Notes: generated by a model from the sequence alone, not told the origin. A stretch of DNA of 64,000 nt from an uncultured Victivallales bacterium (GCA_964609395.1 CAZSRU010000001.1:7324-71323); one strand, 5' to 3'; positions 8,660-62,443 are shown, counted from the first letter of the stretch. Numbers and translations are program-made.

Positions 8660-9436
8660 ATGACCGTGCTGCTGGGGGATTATCCGGTTGTCCTGTTGAT
8701 GGTGTTCTTCCGGGTGAGTGGTGTCCTGCTGGTTCTGCCGTTCTTCGGCATCCCGGCGGACAGCGGGTGGTTGCTGGCGGGAGCGTCGCTGCCGTTGACG
8801 CTTCTCTTCGCCAGCGTCATTTCACCATCCTGGAGTGCCGCCGCAGCCGCCCTGACCACAACGGGCGACTTGGTGCTGGCTATTTTTGGCGAAACCATGC
8901 TTGGCTCGGCGATCGGCTTGGTTTGCGGGATTTTTATCAACGCTTACGTGGTTGCCGGCACCCTTGCCAGCAGCGGATGTTCGCTGTCAATGGCCGAGGA
9001 ACTGGATCCGATAACCGGCGAGTCCTCGGATGTGCTGACGCAGGTTTGGCGCATGCTTTTCCTGTTGACGGTGCTGTCAACGGACGCGCACCTGATGGTT
9101 TTCCGCATCCTGGCGCGCACGTTCGAGCAACTGCCAGTGCCGTGGGTCGGTTGGGTGCATGGCGGACGCGACCTGGCATTGCTCGGGGGCACCGCATTCC
9201 GTGCCGGAATGTCGATCGCACTGCCGATTATTCTGGTTTCATTACTGGTCAGTATAGGTATGGCCTTGATCGCCCGAATGGCCTCCGGCTTTGATGTCAT
9301 GTTTCTCTCGCTGCCTTTCCGCTTGCTACTCGGGTTGAGTGTTTTTGCTCTTGCCTTGCTGTTGGGCGGCGGACTCCTGCGCACTATGGCATATCAGATG
9401 CTATCATCCTTGTCTCAGTTCCTAGGATGGTATTAA
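8660..9436 (+). CDS. fliR: Flagellar export gate protein FliR
   Basis: 258 aa polytopic membrane protein in fliPQR-flhB order. Confidence 0.85.
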   Translation: MTVLLGDYPVVLLMVFFRVSGVLLVLPFFGIPADSGWLLAGASLPLTLLFASVISPSWSAAAAALTTTGDLVLAIFGETMLGSAIGLVCGIFINAYVVAGTLASSGCSLSMAEELDPITGESSDVLTQVWRMLFLLTVLSTDAHLMVFRILARTFEQLPVPWVGWVHGGRDLALLGGTAFRAGMSIALPIILVSLLVSIGMALIARMASGFDVMFLSLPFRLLLGLSVFALALLLGGGLLRTMAYQMLSSLSQFLGWY

Positions 9437-14849: not shown

Positions 14850-15157
14850 AGGCGCTCTTATGTCAGATTGCATTGATTGTAGGCGGGATCGTGGCAGCCC
14901 TGTCGCTTGGGGTTAACTTGTTGCGGCATATGGAGCTGTTCACGGCGGTTTTCCGCGCCATCCTTGTTTTTATCGGTACAGTCACCATCATCTTTCTCTT
15001 CCTGCATCTTTTCTCTGTGATCCTGGTCCGTTTTGTTGCCGAGCAGGTGGTCCAGCAACGTAGTCATGCCGATGACGAACAGAATAAGACAAAGCAAGCT
15101 GGTACCTTTGTGCGTACACGCGCAGGAACGGCACCAAAAGCGATTGAACCGAAATGA
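14846..15157 (+). CDS. Small two-TM membrane protein between flhG and fliA (translationally coupled, ATGA overlaps)
   Basis: 103 aa, two hydrophobic helices then charged tail; overlaps flhG stop and fliA start. Confidence 0.5.
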   Translation: MKALLCQIALIVGGIVAALSLGVNLLRHMELFTAVFRAILVFIGTVTIIFLFLHLFSVILVRFVAEQVVQQRSHADDEQNKTKQAGTFVRTRAGTAPKAIEPK

Positions 15158-15927
15158 GTACGCAAACAACCGATATCAAGGATGAGGAATGTGTAGCCCT
15201 GTGGGCGACGCATGTCGCGGCCCCATCGGAGGATTCGGTTGCTCGCCTTGTCGAGTTTTACCTGCCGATGGTGCGCCAGACGGTTGCGCTGATGTCGGTT
15301 TATTGCCGCCCGGACCTTGACCGGGACGACTTGATCCAGCACGCCATGATGGGACTGTGGCAGTGCATCGAGAAGTTTGATCCTCAACGCCAGATCCGGT
15401 TTCGCAGCTTTGCGATGCCGCGGATTCGCGGGGCGGTGCTGGATGCGCTGCGACGGCATGACCCGTTGAGCCGGAATGACCGCGCACTACTGAAAACATT
15501 GCAGGATTCGGTGGCACTTTTCAGTCATCAGCACCAGGCGGTTCCGGATGAGGAAACGCTGGCAGCGCTGGCCGATATCGATGTCGACCGGTTGCATGAT
15601 TTAACTGCGCGTGCCCAGCCTGTGCTCTCGTTGGATGGAATCGGGCTCGAGGACATGGAAGGCAATGGGCAGAGTCTTGGAGACCGGTTGATTGATGAAA
15701 ATGCACCGGATCCACGCCTGGAAACAGTGCGCAACGAGCAGGGTGCCATTTTCAGGAAAGCCTTCAAGCAATTACCGTCACGACAGCAGAAGATCCTCTA
15801 TTTGTACTATTATGAAGACTTGACTTTAAAGGATATCGGCGCAATTCTGGATCTTACAGAGGCGCGTATATGCCAGTTGCATGCAACGGCACTGCTTTTT
15901 TTGAAAGCATTGATGAGAAGCGCGTAA
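15154..15927 (+). CDS. fliA: Flagellar sigma factor sigma28 FliA
   Basis: Sigma70 regions 2-4; region 4.2 HTH LTLKDIGAILDLTEARICQLHATAL. Confidence 0.9.
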   Translation: MSTQTTDIKDEECVALWATHVAAPSEDSVARLVEFYLPMVRQTVALMSVYCRPDLDRDDLIQHAMMGLWQCIEKFDPQRQIRFRSFAMPRIRGAVLDALRRHDPLSRNDRALLKTLQDSVALFSHQHQAVPDEETLAALADIDVDRLHDLTARAQPVLSLDGIGLEDMEGNGQSLGDRLIDENAPDPRLETVRNEQGAIFRKAFKQLPSRQQKILYLYYYEDLTLKDIGAILDLTEARICQLHATALLFLKALMRSA

Positions 15928-17325: not shown

Positions 17326-17341
17326 TGGCACTGGATCTGCT
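17326..17341 (+). promoter_or_regulatory. sigma54 promoter TGGCACtggatCTGCT upstream of flgL (-12 C is 14 nt before the ATG)
   Basis: GG at -24 and GC at -12 with exact spacing; 12/16 consensus. Confidence 0.6.
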
Positions 17342-41561: not shown

Positions 41562-43475
41562 TCACAGCGTGGCGTGCCACAGGCACAAGTTCACGATCGG
41601 CCATAGTTTCATGGGGTGGACCGTCATGCTGCCGTTCAGCCAGGCATCAACCGCGATCGGGTTGAATAGCGTGTGCCGAAGGGGCGATGTCGCAATTGCC
41701 TCCCTGATCATGGGATTCATCCACGTGTCCATCCAGTCGAAAACAGGCACGGGGAAGCTCATCTTCGGGCGCTGCAGGATCGACGTCGGGACCGAATCGG
41801 TATAGGCGTGGCGTAGCAGCCGTTTGGATTCGATCAGATCCTGTTGTACAATCTCCATCACGTTCAGCCCCTGCGCGGCAATCGCACCAGCCGGTTGCCG
41901 CCAGTCCAGGCGGTAGGTGTCCGGCAGCGAGAATGCAAAATCAACCAGCCGGTGATCGGTAAACGGGACGCGCGCCTCGACGGATGCGGCCATGGAACTG
42001 GAGTCCACCCGCAGGAGCAAGCCTTCGAGGTTGACGCGCAGGTGGGCAAGCATGATGCGGTCCAGGGTGGATGCATCCGGGTGGCGGCTGTAGAGTTGCT
42101 GATAGAAGGCTCGGATGGCATGGTCGTTGTGCAGGCTGGCCGTGATATCCGGATGCATCCAGAGTTGCTTCTCCGGCGTGGACATCCAGGTGTTCAGCAG
42201 CAGGTGCTGGGTGGCCAGATCCGGCAGGTGCGCTTGTCCATAGCCGCGCAGTAGCGCCTGATCGGTCGCATTCATACCTGACTCAGGCTTTGGTGAGCGC
42301 GAAGCCCGGTCGAAGTCATGGGCCGCGAAATAGGCAATCGTGTAACCGCCGAAGATCTCGTCGGCACCTTCGCCGCTCAAGGCCACCGTGTATTCCTCGC
42401 GCAGTGCTTTTGAAAGCATGTAGATCGGCACTTCGTTAGGGGTGGTGAGAGGGAGACCGTTCTGGCGTATCAAAAAATCCCACAATGCGGGGTAATCGGC
42501 CGAGTCAAGCGTGATTTTGCGGCACTTCATACGGTAGGCGTCAGCCGCCTCTTTCACATACGGGAATTCGTTGAACCCGGGTTGCGCGTAGCCCACGTTA
42601 TAGGCGTGAAAGTGGTTGTCCGTGAGGGTGCTGGCCTGTTCTGCAATAATGGTTGAATCCAGGCCGCCGCTGAGAAAACCGCCCAGCGGAACGTCGCTGA
42701 TCAGGCGCAGCCGTACCGCCTCCTTGATCAAGTCGCGCGTTTCTTCGGCCGCCGCTTCCAGTGAGAGCCGTGATTTGTCCTGCGGTGCAGGGCAGGATGG
42801 TGCCCAATAGCAGCCGCCATGCTGCCCGCCGCTCGCGTCGATGCGCATCCAGTGGCCGGGTTCCAGCAAGTGCACGCCGCTGAGCAGGGTATCCTGCCCG
42901 AGATTAACCCGTATGGTGGATAGGTAGTGGGAGGCGGCCGAAGCGTCAAGTGCGGGTTTTTCCGGCAGCAGGGCCAGCAATGCGCGCATCGACGAGGCAA
43001 AACAGAACGTCTTGCGTTGCTGTGCCCAGAATAGCGGCTTTACGCCCAGTCGGTCGCGGGCCAGGAAGAGTGCGCGGTGGCGGGGGTCATAAATGGCGAA
43101 GGCAAACATGCCGAGGAGTCGGTAAATGCAGGCCGTGTCCCACTCCAGAAAGGCGTGCAGCAGCACTTCGGTGTCCGAATGGGTTTGAAATGCGTGTCCC
43201 GCGGCTTGCAGCTCGGTGCGCAATTCCCGGTAATTGTAAATCTCTCCATTAAAGACGATTACCGATCCGGTTTGCGGATCCACCAGCGGCTGGTGCCCGC
43301 CGTCGATGTCGATAATGGCCAGGCGTCGGTGCGCAAGCCCTATGCGGTCTGTGTGGAATTGCCCCTGATCGTCCGGGCCGCGCAAGGCCATGCAATCGGC
43401 CGCATCCTGAAGCCGCGGCAGCCACTGCTCGCAAGGAAGTGCGGTGGGGGAGGCGTAGCCGGCAATACCGCACAT
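41562..43475 (-). CDS. Asparagine-synthetase-family glutamine amidotransferase, PseA-like candidate flagellin-glycan modification enzyme (start moved to MCGIAG ATG 43475, RBS AGGAG)
   Basis: N-terminal Ntn Cys (MCGIAGY), PP-loop SGGLDSS; adjacent to fliD and flagellin. Confidence 0.75.
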   Translation of the reverse strand: MCGIAGYASPTALPCEQWLPRLQDAADCMALRGPDDQGQFHTDRIGLAHRRLAIIDIDGGHQPLVDPQTGSVIVFNGEIYNYRELRTELQAAGHAFQTHSDTEVLLHAFLEWDTACIYRLLGMFAFAIYDPRHRALFLARDRLGVKPLFWAQQRKTFCFASSMRALLALLPEKPALDASAASHYLSTIRVNLGQDTLLSGVHLLEPGHWMRIDASGGQHGGCYWAPSCPAPQDKSRLSLEAAAEETRDLIKEAVRLRLISDVPLGGFLSGGLDSTIIAEQASTLTDNHFHAYNVGYAQPGFNEFPYVKEAADAYRMKCRKITLDSADYPALWDFLIRQNGLPLTTPNEVPIYMLSKALREEYTVALSGEGADEIFGGYTIAYFAAHDFDRASRSPKPESGMNATDQALLRGYGQAHLPDLATQHLLLNTWMSTPEKQLWMHPDITASLHNDHAIRAFYQQLYSRHPDASTLDRIMLAHLRVNLEGLLLRVDSSSMAASVEARVPFTDHRLVDFAFSLPDTYRLDWRQPAGAIAAQGLNVMEIVQQDLIESKRLLRHAYTDSVPTSILQRPKMSFPVPVFDWMDTWMNPMIREAIATSPLRHTLFNPIAVDAWLNGSMTVHPMKLWPIVNLCLWHATL

Positions 43476-43491
43476 GGGGACGCTCCTGCCG

Positions 43492-44967
43492 TTACTTGCT
43501 GCCGTTGAGCTGGCCCAACAGGAATTCGAACCCCGACTGCATTTTGCCGATGGCCTCATCCATGGCACCGAACTGACGCCAGAGCATCGCTTCTTTCATC
43601 TCCAGTTCCCGCGTCATGCGGTCAATCCGTTCGTCCTGGCGAGTGATCTCATCATTGATATTCTCAATGCCGACATCAATCCATCCGTCGAGCTCCGAGG
43701 CGTAATTCTTGGTTTCCGTATAAATGGAAAGGGCGATGCCGCCTTCGCGTACGCCGGCCTGTGTTTCGGAGGGAACGCCCCGGAAAAGATTTTCAACCTC
43801 AGTGGGATATTGCTCCAACATGGCATCGAGGCGTTCTTCGTCGATAATGGCCAAGCGGTTCTGTTCTCCCTGGGTCCAGATACCGATGTGTTGGAGAGAA
43901 TCCATGACTCCCTGTGCCCCGTTGAACGAATACCCTGCATTATCAGCCGTGTGGGTACTGTTCATCAGTTGCCCGGCCAACCCACGCAATTTATAGGTGA
44001 TTTCGCGCATCATACTGTTGTCTTGCAGCATGCCAGGTAAAGGGTTCGATGGATCGCTGCGATCCCAGGTCCCGTAGAACTCATTGACTTCCGCAGCCGT
44101 GTTGTAGGCTTCTATGAAGGTGTTGATCGACTCCTTGATCGCGGCATTATCCCGCCCCACCTTGATTTCGCTGTATCCGGTGTCGTACAAGTTCAGCGTG
44201 ACGCCGTCGACAATATCGGATAGACCGGTGTTGGACGAGCGGGTAACCGTGGCACCATTCACCTTGAATTCGGCATTCTGGGCGGATAGCAATTCGTTGG
44301 TGACCGTGCCAAAGGCGTCCAGGACGCCGAGGCTGAGCAGAGGGGTTCCGGCCGTGTCGGAGATGGAAATGGTATCCGAGCCAGTGTTGACACGCTGAAG
44401 GACGAGCCGATTATCAAGGATCGATGCGGTCACTTGGTCGGCTTCCGGCATAAGCTCGGTGGCCGCATTGATTTTGTCGCGTAGCGAGGACAGGGTTTCC
44501 GTATTACTGATGGTAAAGGTCTGGCCGCCGATGGCGAACTGGTCTCCGAGGCTGACGCCGGCAATGGTGGTCAGGAGCGTGGAGGAGGTCACGGGGGCCC
44601 CCCCCGAGTCGGTCAGTCCGGTAGCGGAGGCAATCGTTTGTGCGCGAGCCAGTTGCGTGACTTCTATCGTATAGGTATTGGCGGCGGCATTGGCGGCGGC
44701 GGTGGCGGTCGCCACTGAGGAATCGGTGCTAGTGGACGCCATTTTACGCCAGACATCCATCCAGCGCAGGCTGTCGGAGGCGCGCGTCAGGGCGCTAAGG
44801 TTGTCCTTTACATCAATCCATGCCGTGACCTTATCATTGCGCAAGGACTGTTCGTCCTGCACTTTTTTAACGCGGCTGCCTTCCATCTCCATGATTTTGG
44901 CGATGGTGGCACCTACATCGAACCCGGAAGCGAGTCCGCTGATACGAAAATCGGGTGTAACACTCAT
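43492..44967 (-). CDS. fliD: Flagellar filament cap protein FliD
   Basis: 491 aa; N-terminus ISGLASGFDVGATIAKIMEME and coiled-coil C-terminus typical of FliD. Confidence 0.9.
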   Translation of the reverse strand: MSVTPDFRISGLASGFDVGATIAKIMEMEGSRVKKVQDEQSLRNDKVTAWIDVKDNLSALTRASDSLRWMDVWRKMASTSTDSSVATATAAANAAANTYTIEVTQLARAQTIASATGLTDSGGAPVTSSTLLTTIAGVSLGDQFAIGGQTFTISNTETLSSLRDKINAATELMPEADQVTASILDNRLVLQRVNTGSDTISISDTAGTPLLSLGVLDAFGTVTNELLSAQNAEFKVNGATVTRSSNTGLSDIVDGVTLNLYDTGYSEIKVGRDNAAIKESINTFIEAYNTAAEVNEFYGTWDRSDPSNPLPGMLQDNSMMREITYKLRGLAGQLMNSTHTADNAGYSFNGAQGVMDSLQHIGIWTQGEQNRLAIIDEERLDAMLEQYPTEVENLFRGVPSETQAGVREGGIALSIYTETKNYASELDGWIDVGIENINDEITRQDERIDRMTRELEMKEAMLWRQFGAMDEAIGKMQSGFEFLLGQLNGSK

Positions 44968-45111: not shown

Positions 45112-46050
45112 TTAACCGATCAACTGCAGCACGCTCTGCGGCAAGGCGTTTGCCTGTGCCAGCATAGCGGTACCGACCTGCGTCAGGATCTGCTGCTTCA
45201 TGAAGTTCGTGGATTCCAAGGCCATATCCGTGTCGCGGATCTGGCTCTCAGCACCCATGATGTTCTCCTGATAGCTGCGGATACCTTCCAGCGAATGGCC
45301 AAGCCGACTGGCCTCGGCACCCAGCGTCGCCCGCGCCTTGCTGAGGTGGTCGACCGCCAGTTTCAGCACGGCGGTTGCGCGCTGCGCACCTGCCATGGTC
45401 GAAATCTGGATGCCGCCACCGATGTCCGAGATTCCGCGTGCAAGCACCATCGACCAGTGGATTTCCTGCTGAGTCGTTACCGCGCCGACACCCGCGAACT
45501 GACCGCACGAGAACGTGATGAACGTTTCGCCGAGAACGGCCGTGCTGTTGGCATGCAGTGCCAGCGACGTTCCGCAGAACAACTGTCCCGGATCCGCGCC
45601 GACCTGAGTGACCAAACCATTGCTACCCTGGAACAAATTGGCTGTGTTGAATTTACCGCGCGCCAAACTGCCGGTTGTGATTCGTGTGATTTCCGCCTGC
45701 ATCTGCTCAAATTCCACCTGCAGATTGTCGCGGTCCGTCTGTGTTTTCGTTCCATCGGCCGATGCCACGGCGAGTTCGTTCATCCGGTGCACCATATCGT
45801 GGATCTTCTGCATCCAGGAATCCGCCGTACGCATGTAAGCCTGGGCATTCTGGATGTTCTGAGCCGCCATGCTCGAATTGCGGATCTGCGAACGCATACG
45901 TTCGCTCATCGCCAAGCCAGCCGGATCATCCGACGCCGTCGTGATGCGCAAACCGCTGGACAGCTTGCTCATCGATGAGCGCATGCTATTCACGCTGGAC
46001 GCATAGTTAACCCACACACCGAACGCGGGAACGTTATTGTATACTTGCAT
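45112..46050 (-). CDS. fliC: Flagellin (short D0-D1 type), paralog 1 (start at MQVYNN ATG 46050, RBS GGAGG)
   Basis: Flagellin N-terminus (KLSSGLRITTASDDPAGLAMSERMRSQIRN) and C-terminus (STNFMKQQILTQVGTAMLAQANALPQSVLQLIG). Confidence 0.9.
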   Translation of the reverse strand: MQVYNNVPAFGVWVNYASSVNSMRSSMSKLSSGLRITTASDDPAGLAMSERMRSQIRNSSMAAQNIQNAQAYMRTADSWMQKIHDMVHRMNELAVASADGTKTQTDRDNLQVEFEQMQAEITRITTGSLARGKFNTANLFQGSNGLVTQVGADPGQLFCGTSLALHANSTAVLGETFITFSCGQFAGVGAVTTQQEIHWSMVLARGISDIGGGIQISTMAGAQRATAVLKLAVDHLSKARATLGAEASRLGHSLEGIRSYQENIMGAESQIRDTDMALESTNFMKQQILTQVGTAMLAQANALPQSVLQLIG

Positions 46051-46453
46051 GATCTTCCTCCGTGATTTTGTCTTCACTTTTGAATTTTCACCTTAAGAGT
46101 TAGCATCCTTGCTTTCTCTGACTTATGCCGCTATCCGTTTTCTTTGGGTCGCTTATGCCGGAGGATTGCGAGCTCTATGCCGGTTTCCTCGACCCCTCGC
46201 GATGTTGTAATCTATTTCCGAGTTCCATTCCCCCCTTTTCTTTTGACTGACGCTTAATCTGGACGGCCGACACCGCATCGGCCTCCCCGCACAGTCGTAG
46301 ATTCGGTATCCAGACCCCGGTGCTTAAACAAGGCATCATATTTTCCAGCGATCTGCGGTGGCGTCGGCAGAAGTTGCCCATCGCGGTAGGGGTGCCGCCC
46401 GCGGTGATGGCAGTATTTTCCGTTTCAAGGGCTCTGATCATGCAGTTTCCGTG

Positions 46454-46469
46454 TGGCATCCGTGGTGCT
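46454..46469 (+). promoter_or_regulatory. sigma54 promoter TGGCATccgtgGTGCT upstream of fliW-csrA
   Basis: Exact spacing; ~70 nt before the fliW ATG. Confidence 0.5.
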
Positions 46470-46537
46470 TTAGAGAAGCAGCCAAGTCGAGAGGCAACGC
46501 GAACACGGAGGCGGTAAAACAAACGAGGGACGCAGCT

Positions 46538-47062
46538 ATGAACACGAAGTCGATATACGAAGACGCGATTGTTGTTAAACCTTATTCGAGGCTGGTCTCC
46601 TTGACGATCCGGCCGGAGCATGTATTCCATCTCCCGCAAGGCCTGCCTGCCTTTGAGGGATTCAAGAATTACATTTTCACGATCAAGCCGGATACCAGTC
46701 CATTTATTTTCATGCAATCAATTGAGCCCGCCGGCCTTTCGTTTGTCTGTATTGACCCCTTCCTGGTGTATCCGGATTATGCGCCCCGTATCGGGACCGC
46801 CGACCAGGATCTTCTTCGTCTTGCCCGCCCGGAAGCGCTGATGTTGTTAAGCATCGTGACCGTGCGCGCCGATGAACGCGAAACAACGGCGAATCTACAG
46901 GGACCCCTGGCGATCAATATTGAAAACTCGATCGGCAAGCAGATTCTCTGCGATGGGCAGACTTATCCGGTGCGGTATAGGATCTGGGATGCCATCAGCC
47001 AGGACGAAACGACGCTCGATCAGGCTTCCGTGCGGTACGGCATTGAGTATGCTAGCGCATAG
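46538..47062 (+). CDS. fliW: Flagellar assembly factor FliW (CsrA antagonist); start moved to MNTKS ATG 46538 (RBS GAGGGA)
   Basis: FliW-family sequence (FEGFKNYIFTI...LLSIVTVRAD...TANLQGPLAINI) directly upstream of csrA. Confidence 0.85.
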   Translation: MNTKSIYEDAIVVKPYSRLVSLTIRPEHVFHLPQGLPAFEGFKNYIFTIKPDTSPFIFMQSIEPAGLSFVCIDPFLVYPDYAPRIGTADQDLLRLARPEALMLLSIVTVRADERETTANLQGPLAINIENSIGKQILCDGQTYPVRYRIWDAISQDETTLDQASVRYGIEYASA

Positions 47063-47132
47063 ATGGAACGGGGCATGATGAGAATGGCAGCTAATGGTTT
47101 ATTGAAAACGCGACAGGCCAAGGAGGGCCGCT

Positions 47133-47366
47133 ATGCTAGTACTGACAAGGAAGTTGGAAGAGAGCGTGATGATCGGCACGGACATCGAGGTGCGCGTACT
47201 GGGGGTACATGGCGATCAGGTGCGATTGGGTTTTTCGGCACCTAAAACGGTTTCGGTTTTCCGCAAGGAAGTGTTCGATGCGATTCAGGAGGAAAATCGG
47301 CAGGCGGCCAGTCCGGACAAGGTTGGACTGGCGGCGTTTGCCGAATCGTTTAAACGACGGGGTTAA
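47133..47366 (+). CDS. csrA: Carbon storage regulator CsrA
   Basis: MLVLTRKLEESVMIGTDIEVRVLGV...VRLGFSAPKTVSVFRKEV matches CsrA almost residue-for-residue. Confidence 0.95.
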   Translation: MLVLTRKLEESVMIGTDIEVRVLGVHGDQVRLGFSAPKTVSVFRKEVFDAIQEENRQAASPDKVGLAAFAESFKRRG

Positions 47367-47517
47367 TCCAAGGTCCGTTCCAGGGCTGGATTATGGAAAG
47401 GAGGTGACGGGAGTCAGTCGGGGTTGGAATGCACTGCCGCCGGTGCAGTGCACAGGGCGCCATGGGCGGTCTGGAGTGATGCCGGTGTTGTAAATGAGGA
47501 TTCAATGCTAACAAGAA

Positions 47518-47553
47518 GGGGCAAGGACGCCCCAGATTAAAAATCAAGGAGGA
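47518..47553 (+). promoter_or_regulatory. Putative CsrA binding sites in the flagellin 2 leader: GGA in a hairpin loop (GGGGC-AAGGAC-GCCCC) plus GGA overlapping the Shine-Dalgarno AAGGAGG
   Basis: Stem-loop 47518..47533 with an AAGGA loop; second GGA at the SD 47546..47553; arrangement mirrors known CsrA-hag regulation. Confidence 0.5.
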
Positions 47554-47561
47554 GAGAGAAA

Positions 47562-60837: not shown

Positions 60838-60853
60838 TGGCACGCATATTGCA
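60838..60853 (+). promoter_or_regulatory. Consensus sigma54 promoter TGGCACGcataTTGCA upstream of rpoN, preceded by a ~60 nt AT-rich tract
   Basis: Perfect match to TGGCACG-N4-TTGCA; 53 nt upstream of the rpoN ATG. Confidence 0.7.
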
Positions 60854-60904
60854 TTGGTAATCATCAACGAAGTGTTGTTAACTACTCTTTGATTGGTGGG
60901 AACC

Positions 60905-62443
60905 ATGAATATAAATTTCAACTTGTCCGGTAACGTCTCCCAGCAGCAGCAGCTTAATCTGGCCCCACAACTGCTGCAATGGCTGCGCCTTCTCCAGGTG
61001 CCGGCGCAGCATTTGGAACAGATGGTTCGGAGTGAGATTGAAACCAATCCCGCGCTGGAAGTCGATGAGAGTGCCCCCGCCGCACCGGATGATGCCGACC
61101 TTTACGCCGAGCCATCGGCGGATGTGCGTGACGCGGATTCCGAGCGTGAAGGCAGGGAATTGGAGGAGCGTTTTGAAATCCTTGCTGAAATCGATTCGCA
61201 ATGGGCGGATGAAAACCGCAATATGGCGGGCGAGGATCTCGGTCGTACGCAGGACCGGATCGACTATCAGTTGCAGTCACTGGTGTCTGCCTCTTCCCTT
61301 CAGGAACATCTTCTTCGCCAGTTGGCGGTGATGAATAAGCCGGATGTCCTGAAGGTCAATGCGGGATTGATTGTTGGAATGCTGGATGAGCGCGGCTATC
61401 TGGACGTCTCGCTGGATGAATTGGCCGAAGAACTCGCACTTGCCGTTGAGGTGGTGGAGGATGCCCTCGCGGTGGTTCAGGAATGTGATCCGATAGGCGT
61501 TGGTGCCCGTGATTTGCGTGAATGCCTTCTCTTGCAGTTATCGCCGACGGACGACGCCCATGCGGTTGCCCGGCGAATCGTATCCCGCTATATCGAGGCG
61601 CTGGCGCGTGGGCAGCTTGAGGGCATCGCCCGTCAGTTGGGGGTGTCTTTGGCCGAGGTTGAGTCGGCAGTAAAGCTGATCCGCACACTCAACCCGACTC
61701 CCGGCAAGACGTTTGAAGAGCAGAAGATGGTTACGCAGACGGTGACGCCCGATATTTCCATCCGGCGCAACGCGGAAGGGGGCTTTGATATTGAAATGGT
61801 TGAACAGTCGCTGCCGCGACTGCGCATCAGCCCCTATTGCCGACGCATGATCGAGCAAGGCGGCTTGTCAAAAACGGATTTGGCCTATATTCGTTCCCGT
61901 ATCCGTGCCGCCTCTTTCCTGATAGAGGGACTTGAAAAACGCGGGTCGACATTGCGGCGCATTGCAGAGGAGATTATCCGCGGCCAGCACCGCTTCCTGC
62001 GGGGGGAGGAAAGCGAGATCCGGCCCCTGACCATGGCCAAGGTGGCGAGCTTTATCGGGGTGCATGACACCACCGTCAGCCGTGCCCTGGCTGACAAGTA
62101 TGTCTCCACGCCGGTTGGCGTGTTGCCCATGAAAGCGTTTTTCTGCACCGGATATCGGTGCGATGATGGCAGTGCCATGACACCGGAAATGGTGCGCCGG
62201 CGCATCGAGCAGATGATTCTCGATGAAGAACCCGGAAAACCGATCAAGGACGAATGTATTGCCGCTCAGTTGCGTGAGAGTGGTGTTGTGGTAGCCCGTC
62301 GTACGGTTGCCAAATATAGAGGCGAATTGGGATTGCCATCATCGAAGGAACGTGCGCAGGCACGCCGCCAGGGCCTACGGGTTATCCATGGCTCCGGCAA
62401 TCCTGCTGCAAGCATCGAACCGGTGGCAGTGGCTTTTGGATAA
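60905..62443 (+). CDS. rpoN: RNA polymerase sigma54 factor RpoN (start at ATG 60905)
   Basis: Region I (LNLAPQLLQWLRLLQVP), core-binding and DNA-binding regions, RpoN box ARRTVAKYR. Confidence 0.95.
   Translation: MNINFNLSGNVSQQQQLNLAPQLLQWLRLLQVPAQHLEQMVRSEIETNPALEVDESAPAAPDDADLYAEPSADVRDADSEREGRELEERFEILAEIDSQWADENRNMAGEDLGRTQDRIDYQLQSLVSASSLQEHLLRQLAVMNKPDVLKVNAGLIVGMLDERGYLDVSLDELAEELALAVEVVEDALAVVQECDPIGVGARDLRECLLLQLSPTDDAHAVARRIVSRYIEALARGQLEGIARQLGVSLAEVESAVKLIRTLNPTPGKTFEEQKMVTQTVTPDISIRRNAEGGFDIEMVEQSLPRLRISPYCRRMIEQGGLSKTDLAYIRSRIRAASFLIEGLEKRGSTLRRIAEEIIRGQHRFLRGEESEIRPLTMAKVASFIGVHDTTVSRALADKYVSTPVGVLPMKAFFCTGYRCDDGSAMTPEMVRRRIEQMILDEEPGKPIKDECIAAQLRESGVVVARRTVAKYRGELGLPSSKERAQARRQGLRVIHGSGNPAASIEPVAVAFG

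Follow-up and report, generated by a model that had tools for sequence, protein, structure and literature searches.

The SELEX consensus for CsrA is RUACARGGAUGU, and the hexaloop of RsmE-hcnA reads A/U-CANGGANG-U/A. The leader of the Bacillus subtilis flagellin gene hag, with the gene order fliW-csrA-hag, is reportedly known from the work of Yakhnin in 2007 and of Mukherjee in 2011 and 2016, and the loop of its upstream CsrA site (BS1) is AAGGAC, as in the leader analysed here. The partner-switch loop between FliW, CsrA and flagellin has been established for hag (PMC6529632, PMC7652899, PMC13443453), a system also treated by Oshiro 2019 (PMC6529632), and the G-38A allele of hag ('GGA to GAA') puts the GGA of its BS1 at -39..-37 (PMC13443453). 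The identity of the hag loop with ours relies in part on the G-38A numbering (PMC13443453); when the literature was searched for the precise sequence of the hag leader, only unrelated primers came up. In Campylobacter jejuni, the 45-nt leader of flaA carries two hexaloops of the ANGGA type at a distance of 21 nt, and its ribosome-binding site is covered by the second; the structure is backed by compensatory changes, and GGA mutants are de-repressed 2-3-fold (Dugar 2016, PMC4894983). As for the spacing of such sites, one CsrA dimer bridges sites 10-63 nt apart, with an optimum at approximately 18 nt, according to the summary of Mercante 2009 given in PMC7652899.

The window analysed here, a stretch of 64,000 nt from an uncultured Victivallales bacterium, encodes a flagellar and chemotaxis cluster that comprises cheB, cheR, fliPR, flhBAFG, a flgL-like gene, fliM, motB, fliK, fliI, fliG, fliF, flgFGAHI, flgK and rpoN, as well as two sigma-54 activators with kinases. 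In this cluster, fliW, csrA and the gene for flagellin 2 are directly consecutive on the plus strand, and the gene for a second flagellin, flagellin 1, lies on the opposite strand (Table 1). MQVYNNVPAF is the N-terminus of both paralogs; the flagellin 1 ORF was listed as 45112-46077 (-), from a longer GTG start, and we took ATG 46050 as the true start. The initial annotation had described a GGGGC-AAGGAC-GCCCC hairpin with GGA in its loop, 28 nt upstream of an AAGGAGG SD in the flagellin 2 leader, with fliW-csrA immediately upstream. The sequence agrees exactly with the former, and the Pfam assignments of FliW and CsrA bear out the latter. The gene order is that of hag, and so is the presence of two GGA stem-loop sites, one of them over the SD. 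The BS1 GGA lies approximately 37 nt before the ATG in both cases, at -37..-35 in the window. Unlike B. subtilis, the window has two flagellin paralogs, both with sites, and its host is a Gram-negative bacterium of the PVC superphylum. With C. jejuni it shares a sigma-54/sigma-28 flagellar hierarchy, two flagellins and Maf/MptE-like genes nearby, whereas in that organism flaA has neither csrA nor fliW as a neighbour.

Table 1. Genes, candidate CsrA sites and promoter candidates in the window.
Feature	Position	Strand	Description
Sigma-70-family gene	15154-15927		in fliA position
Further sigma-54-type element	17326-17341	+	
Further sigma-54-type element	39378-39363	-	
FliD	43492-44967	-	Pfam
Further sigma-54-type element	44998-44983	-	
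Flagellin 1 CDS	45112-46050	-	312 aa from ATG 46050; Pfam flagellin
BS2/SD, flagellin 1	46064-46054	-	CACGGAGGAAG; GGA 46061-46059, 11 nt 5' of ATG
BS1, flagellin 1	46119-46096	-	two-tier hairpin AGAG / AGC(A)-AAGGAT-(U)GCT / CUCU; GGA 46108-46106
Inner stem-loop, flagellin 1	46112-46103	-	GCAAGGATGC
Sigma-54-like element, flagellin 1	46182-46167	-	CGGCATAGAGCTCGCA; 132 nt upstream; common to L003 and L004
Sigma-28-like element, flagellin 1	46326-46300	-	TAAG-N16-CCGAAT; ~276 nt upstream
Sigma-54-type promoter candidate, upstream of fliW-csrA	46454-46469	+	TGGCATCCGTGGTGCT; consensus match, kept in nearly all related loci
fliW	46538-47062	+	174 aa; Pfam FliW
csrA SD hairpin, candidate autoregulatory site	47116-47129	+	GGCC-AAGGAG-GGCC; GGA 47122-47124; 3 nt before ATG 47133
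csrA	47133-47366	+	77 aa; Pfam CsrA
csrA coding hairpin, candidate second autoregulatory site	47142-47157	+	CUGAC-AAGGAA-GUUGG; codons 4-9; GGA 47149-47151
BS1, flagellin 2, candidate high-affinity CsrA site	47518-47533	+	GGGGC-AAGGAC-GCCCC; 5-bp GC stem, hexaloop AAGGAC; GGA 47525-47527
BS2, flagellin 2	47544-47553	+	TCAAGGAGGA; GGA 47548-47550 inside SD, 14 nt 5' of ATG
SD, flagellin 2	47546-47552	+	AAGGAGG; 28 nt from hairpin start
Flagellin 2 ATG	47562	+	
Flagellin 2 CDS	47562-48503	+	313 aa; Pfam Flagellin_N + Flagellin_C
FliS	50885-51325	+	Pfam
Further sigma-54-type element	56425-56440	+	
Further sigma-54-type element	60838-60853	+	
rpoN	60893-62443		

The BS1 hairpin of flagellin 2 is present in the MFE and centroid folds of 76-nt, 141-nt and 209-nt contexts, with the SD unpaired, and on its own it folds at -10.9 kcal/mol (z = -3.3). 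An A-rich spacer separates it from the SD, and the two GGA motifs are 23 nt apart, close to the 21 nt of flaA, where the second site likewise lies over the ribosome-binding site. The SD stem of the window differs from that of flaA, being just 2 bp long (TC/GA); because only these pairs flank its GGA, BS2 of flagellin 2 is single-stranded in effect. In flagellin 1, the SD hairpin likewise has only two pairs (UC/GA), and the GGA-to-GGA distance is 47 nt. Its BS1, taken with the outer AGAG/CUCU helix, folds at -6.9 kcal/mol (z = -2.5). The flagellin 1 leader had been credited with a GGA in its SD and a weaker stem; the SD GGA is there, and the 'weaker' stem proves longer than annotated, the outer helix lengthening it to two tiers. 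Flagellin 2 should be a tighter CsrA target than flagellin 1, a prediction made because of its stronger stem and near-optimal spacing.

Hairpins with GGA in the loop are not rare as such. Counting those with GGA in a loop of 4-8 nt and a stem of at least 5 bp, we found 21 in the window compared with 30.4 +/- 4.5 in dinucleotide shuffles, and as this is no enrichment we make no claim of significance for the hairpin alone. That shuffled sequence matches the window in the frequency of such hairpins speaks for a chance adjacency of two motifs, a reading that is nevertheless already contradicted by the conserved position of the hairpin, the covariation of its stem and its recovery by independent models across phyla, and to which we accord next to no probability. 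What exceeds chance is the position and conservation of the hairpin, not the hairpin itself.

The comparison with relatives was made with flagellin 2 as the query and one genome per species, which yielded 25 loci, all from MAGs of Kiritimatiellia, 'Verrucomicrobiota' or Lentisphaerae; the best relative by flagellin 2 is 79% identical (UBA6015). The arrangement of a flagellin gene on the minus strand next to fliW-csrA-flagellin on the plus strand recurs among these loci. A hairpin with an ANGGAN hexaloop and a stem of at least 4 bp is found at -90..-20 in 23 of the 33 related flagellin leaders, as against 1.6% of random 70-nt windows, all drawn from the same DNA, and if stems of at least 3 bp are admitted the figures become 26 of 33 and 3.0%. 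In a blind alignment of the csrA-flagellin spacers from the six nearest relatives, BS1, the SD and the ATG came out as the sole invariant non-coding columns.

We then aligned on their GGA 26 distinct hairpins chosen by the hairpin finder (alignment A1). In the loop, A11, G13, G14 and A15 are invariant, C10 is present in at least 90% and G17 in most; the closing pair is C-G in 23 of the 26, and the variable position is A, G or C, followed by GGA and then by U or C. The closing pair and the loop columns therefore give the consensus C-A-N-G-G-A-N-G, i.e. CANGGANG, to which the C-AAGGAC-G of the flagellin 2 BS1 conforms. Written as C-A-(A/G/C)-G-G-A-(U/C)-G with a closing C-G pair, this consensus shows no sequence-level difference from the high-affinity sites of CsrA and RsmE. 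Stem cells of A1 are paired in 84.6% of cases, compared with 52.6% after shuffling and 33-42% in slid registers, a percentage inflated by the selection of the hairpins through a hairpin search, so that the background test and the searches of unseen loci serve as the controls. Double changes affect 55 cells compared with 17.6 after shuffling, all seven stem pairs are compensated, and the covariation score is 0.73 compared with 0.18. Run unconstrained on A1, RNAalifold returned the same 7-bp stem and hexaloop. As in C. jejuni flaA, the structure is thus backed by compensatory changes.

These data bear on two further readings of the hairpin. It might be a general stabiliser or processing element at the 5' end of the mRNA, acting against 5'-dependent RNases independently of CsrA, as could be suggested by its stable stem, located close to what is presumably the 5' portion of a highly abundant mRNA, and by the presence of more GC-rich hairpins between csrA and BS1 at several loci. 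For such a function a stem would suffice, yet it is the loop that is invariant (A11, G13, G14, A15) while the stem sequence drifts freely, and the motif of the loop is met again at the SD and within csrA; we regard this reading as very unlikely. Still less probable, in our view, are a role in intrinsic termination or attenuation past the end of csrA and a role as palindromic DNA that a transcription factor binds. A terminator scan did flag 47533-47518 (-), and the element is a perfect 5-bp inverted repeat. However, what follows the stem on the plus strand is AGAUUAAAAAUC, which contains no U tract, the minus-strand match has no gene to terminate, and the flagellin 1 copy is not 3' of any gene; as only the minus strand matched and the plus strand is devoid of a U tract, we rejected the intrinsic terminator. 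As for a DNA operator, base-pairing is kept and half-site sequences are not, which is the signature of an RNA element.

The hairpin was also recovered with covariance models. A model built from A1 (R1) was run without filters on 17 unseen metagenomic loci (69 kb) at E <= 1, and 26 of its 28 matches fall in flagellin BS1, flagellin SD, the csrA SD or csrA codons 2-10. A second model (R2) was built from the metagenomic loci alone, some of them very distant, with the window and its close relatives excluded. In the whole window (128 kb) it ranks 47513-47539 and 46094-46120 second and third. The covariance-model matches amount to 22.7 and 17.8 bits for the BS1 of flagellin 2 and to 19.9 and 16.9 bits for that of flagellin 1, the lower value of each pair being that of R2. 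The top R2 match, 8949-8975 (-), has the loop AAGGGT, which is devoid of GGA, and lies antisense inside fliR; it was dismissed. The Rfam covariance models gave no match at the gathering threshold in the whole window, and none at positions 45950-47700 with permissive E values up to 10.

A metagenome scan with a CsrA alignment brought up fliW-csrA-flagellin loci of much more distant lineages, whose flagellins are 27-46% identical and start with MR.. or MI.., and which have canonical CCGATAA sigma-28 -10 boxes. Their BS1 elements (e.g. ugccac-AAGGAU-guggca and gauucac-AAGGAU-gugaauc) place the GGA 34-41 nt 5' of the ATG, a range that includes the 37 nt of the window, and their SD has the form UUC-A(A/G)GGAG-GAA. 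The geometry of BS1 and BS2 is near-fixed across very distant phyla, which agrees with the view of an ancient module (PMC6529632). The window element is thus a typical representative of a leader type that is ancient and conserved over a wide range. In a set of distant, Firmicute-like leaders (L029, L033-L036, L051, L055, L059 and L060), we observed in addition a common long hairpin with GGCGGCCGAC or ACGGCCGC in its loop. This hairpin, which has no relation to the window, is located some 50-90 nt 5' of the flagellin ATG, 3' of the sigma-28 promoter and 5' of BS1, and matches no element that we recognised as known.

As for the second site, an SD of the form A(A/C/G/T)GGAGGA, 10-15 nt 5' of the ATG, occurs in all 33 leaders. 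In most relatives the SD is itself a hexaloop hairpin (e.g. gauuc-AAGGAG-gaauc), with 4-6 bp in many, and its third pair covaries, UUC...GAA being paired in 15 of 15 cases and AUC...GAU in 6 of 14. Over all leaders the GGA-GGA spacing is 23-62 nt, and the spacings of both window leaders and of the relatives fall inside the 10-63 nt that a dimer can bridge (PMC7652899). At L017:2747-3001 (Pontiellaceae bacterium B12219), the end of csrA is approximately 35 nt before the flagellin ATG and BS1 is absent, the leader having just an SD, AAAGGAU; the arrangement is here reduced to a single site. Flagellin paralogs devoid of BS1 at L016:1978 and L019:3001 have perfect sigma-54 promoters, TGGCATACCCTTTGCT and TGGCACACAGCCTGCT, and in this they recall flaB, the minor flagellin that depends on sigma-54 in Campylobacter and Helicobacter.

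The initial annotation had proposed a two-site CsrA architecture of the hag and flaA type, a proposal strengthened here by the hairpin GGA and the SD GGA, the loop consensus, the bridgeable spacing and the compensatory changes. Every part of this architecture that can be tested in sequence is present and under selection. We consider it highly probable that the leaders are two-site CsrA operators in a FliW-CsrA-flagellin partner-switch loop. In the 5' leader of each flagellin mRNA, BS1 would be the hexaloop C-A-N-GGA-N-G and BS2 the GGA within the SD; a single CsrA dimer, supplied by the gene next upstream, would bridge both and block the 30S subunit, so as to repress flagellin translation. FliW would bind the N55/C-terminal surface of CsrA, whereupon the mRNA would be released, and FliW would itself be sequestered by cytoplasmic flagellin. 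Such a partner switch would therefore tie flagellin synthesis to flagellin export, as in hag and flaA. The loop, which the initial annotation had also put forward, is supported by synteny and by the conserved interface residues described below; we infer it by homology, and infer as well CsrA binding, repression, antagonism by FliW and a transcription start 5' of BS1.

CsrA might bind and the leader nonetheless serve mainly as a sponge that titrates CsrA from other targets, or in mRNA localisation. The C. jejuni flaA leader, of the same two-hexaloop design, has a dual role (PMC4894983), the CANGGANG sites of the csrA mRNA could be among the titrated targets, and the spacer between csrA and BS1 is GGA-rich. 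Nevertheless, BS2 overlaps the SD in every leader, which directly predicts ribosome occlusion, and the two-site pattern is found in no other gene of the window. We deem a mainly sponge-like or localising function unlikely, with the proviso that the two roles are not exclusive and that a sponge is compatible with CsrA binding.

The best structural match of the window CsrA is Geobacillus CsrA in its complex with FliW (5DMB_D, 1e-18), with an alignment that extends through residue 74; among its best solved relatives is also B. subtilis CsrA (1T3O). The window protein has the C-terminal extension, with IQEEN55, and I14 is present; N55 is invariant in 11 relatives. In B. subtilis, mutation of CsrA N55 abolishes FliW binding (bioRxiv 10.1101/2020.07.02.184341). 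The window FliW matches 5DMB_A (3e-18), and at a constant offset of 11 its P37, F69, N119, K134 and Q135 are the equivalents of P26, F58, N108, K123 and Q124 in B. subtilis; in the same alignment, A111 corresponds to G122. Those B. subtilis residues are the 'N55-proximal' and core-proximal ones (bioRxiv 10.1101/2020.07.02.184341). The extension with N55 and the K-Q pair of FliW are thus common to both organisms, and the residues through which CsrA and FliW interact in B. subtilis and Geobacillus are retained in the window. CsrA Asp41 differs: the window has Ser41 instead, and its relatives have S, P or A. The salt bridge between D41 and FliW K123 is needed for allosteric inhibition in B. subtilis, where alone this role has been established (bioRxiv 10.1101/2020.07.02.184341).

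The csrA gene carries candidate sites of its own. Both of its hairpins are of the CANGGANG type, the GGA of the coding hairpin being 27 nt 3' of that in the SD. GCC-ANGGAG-GGC is found at the csrA SD in 17 of 17 related csrA loci and also in many metagenomic loci; a soil csrA group devoid of fliW has CGCC-AGGGA-GGCG instead, and the SD hairpin is absent from Firmicute-like loci in which the fliW-csrA gap is 14-39 nt. In the coding site, all 17 loci encode Thr5 by ACA; for Arg6, AGG is used in 12 of the 17, and three further codons are CGG, which keeps the GGA. Among the genes of the window, only 15% of the codons for Thr are ACA, and only 4.4% of those for Arg are AGG. The csrA SD is the third-best covariance-model match though absent from the model, and both csrA sites score with models that never included them. 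The two hairpin sites suggest two-site translational autoregulation of csrA. Translational autoregulation of Escherichia coli csrA (Yakhnin 2011) is cited in PMC7652899; as in the window, a GGA site there overlaps the SD of csrA itself and a second lies in the early coding region, whereas E. coli has four sites, sRNA antagonists and no FliW, compared with two hairpin sites in a fliW-csrA operon here. In B. subtilis, fliW and csrA are translationally coupled (PMC6529632); in the window, in contrast, they are 70 nt apart and the csrA SD is embedded in a hairpin. Autoregulation of csrA may substitute for the coupling found in B. subtilis (PMC6529632). It is tempting to speculate, with somewhat less than even confidence, that the FliW:CsrA balance is set here by self-repression of CsrA, through the SD hairpin and a hairpin at codons 5-7 held by the rare ACA-AGG pair, rather than by translational coupling, and that the same dimer controls two differently transcribed flagellin paralogs.

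As for transcription, B. subtilis uses sigma-D, whereas a sigma-54 operon is predicted here. Matches to TGGCAY-N5-YTGCW with at most one mismatch number 19 in the window compared with 10.7 expected, and such elements precede fliW, fliD, the flgL-like gene, flgI, rpoN and others. For flagellin 2, the stretch from csrA to BS1 yielded no sigma-70, sigma-54 or sigma-28 consensus. Within csrA, a GCCGAATC motif was considered as a flagellin 2 promoter and set aside, being inseparable from coding conservation. In L004, the csrA stop is approximately 10 nt from BS1, which makes co-transcription of flagellin 2 with fliW-csrA plausible; the fliW sigma-54 promoter may drive flagellin 2 also, by read-through. 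Both promoter candidates of flagellin 1 sit 5' of its BS1, and the sigma-28-like one would produce a leader of approximately 250 nt. Nine other genes of the 'flagellin-1-type' have sigma-28-like counterparts 238-276 nt 5' of their ATG. Three copies of CGGCATA(A)G, at 46182-46175, 46160-46152 and 46130-46122 (-), 22 and 30 nt apart, precede the hairpin of flagellin 1, and the related locus L005 has an analogous doubled GGCTACATAAC. These repeats could be regulator sites or promoter elements.

The regions around flagellin 2 hold several other features. The spacer between csrA and BS1, 47367-47517 (+), contains seven GGA motifs in 150 nt. A perfect SD-like AAAGGAGGTGA at 47398-47408 (+) is kept in L001 and partly in L002; a small ORF behind it was considered and discarded, as there is no start codon at a workable distance and the relatives have no common ORF. 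Further on, at 47430-47452 (+), lies a GC hairpin, TGCACTGC-N7-GCAGTGCA, devoid of a U tract, and relatives have other GC hairpins there. Past the flagellin 2 stop, a long GC-rich hairpin, GGCCGGTCATCGCC...GGCGATGACCGGCC, also devoid of a U tract, is present at 48506-48560 (+); after it comes a 171-aa ORF (48542-49057, +) with no Pfam match, in a position that is often that of flaG. Between the genes for flagellin 2 and FliS, at 49057-50871 (+), an MptE-like protein (PF01973, Maf-type) is encoded; adjoining fliD, at 41562-43568 (-), is the gene for a homolog of asparagine synthase. These two genes are consistent with a role in flagellin glycosylation or modification, as in Campylobacter.

What we describe is, on sequence grounds, the already-known FliW-CsrA-flagellin loop, met in the little-studied Kiritimatiellia; the literature searched contained no paper on CsrA in Kiritimatiellia or Lentisphaerae. 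The analysis extends sequence-level evidence for this loop to both groups, and hence to the PVC superphylum. It also provides a compact descriptor of CsrA-controlled flagellin genes in metagenomes, covered by no Rfam family, namely a CANGGANG hexaloop 23-62 nt 5' of an A(N)GGAGGA SD. If the proposal on csrA is true, FliW-free CsrA would limit both flagellin and itself, which would give the homeostasis loop a fourth node, and the csrA self-sites would represent a variant way of keeping the stoichiometry of the module.
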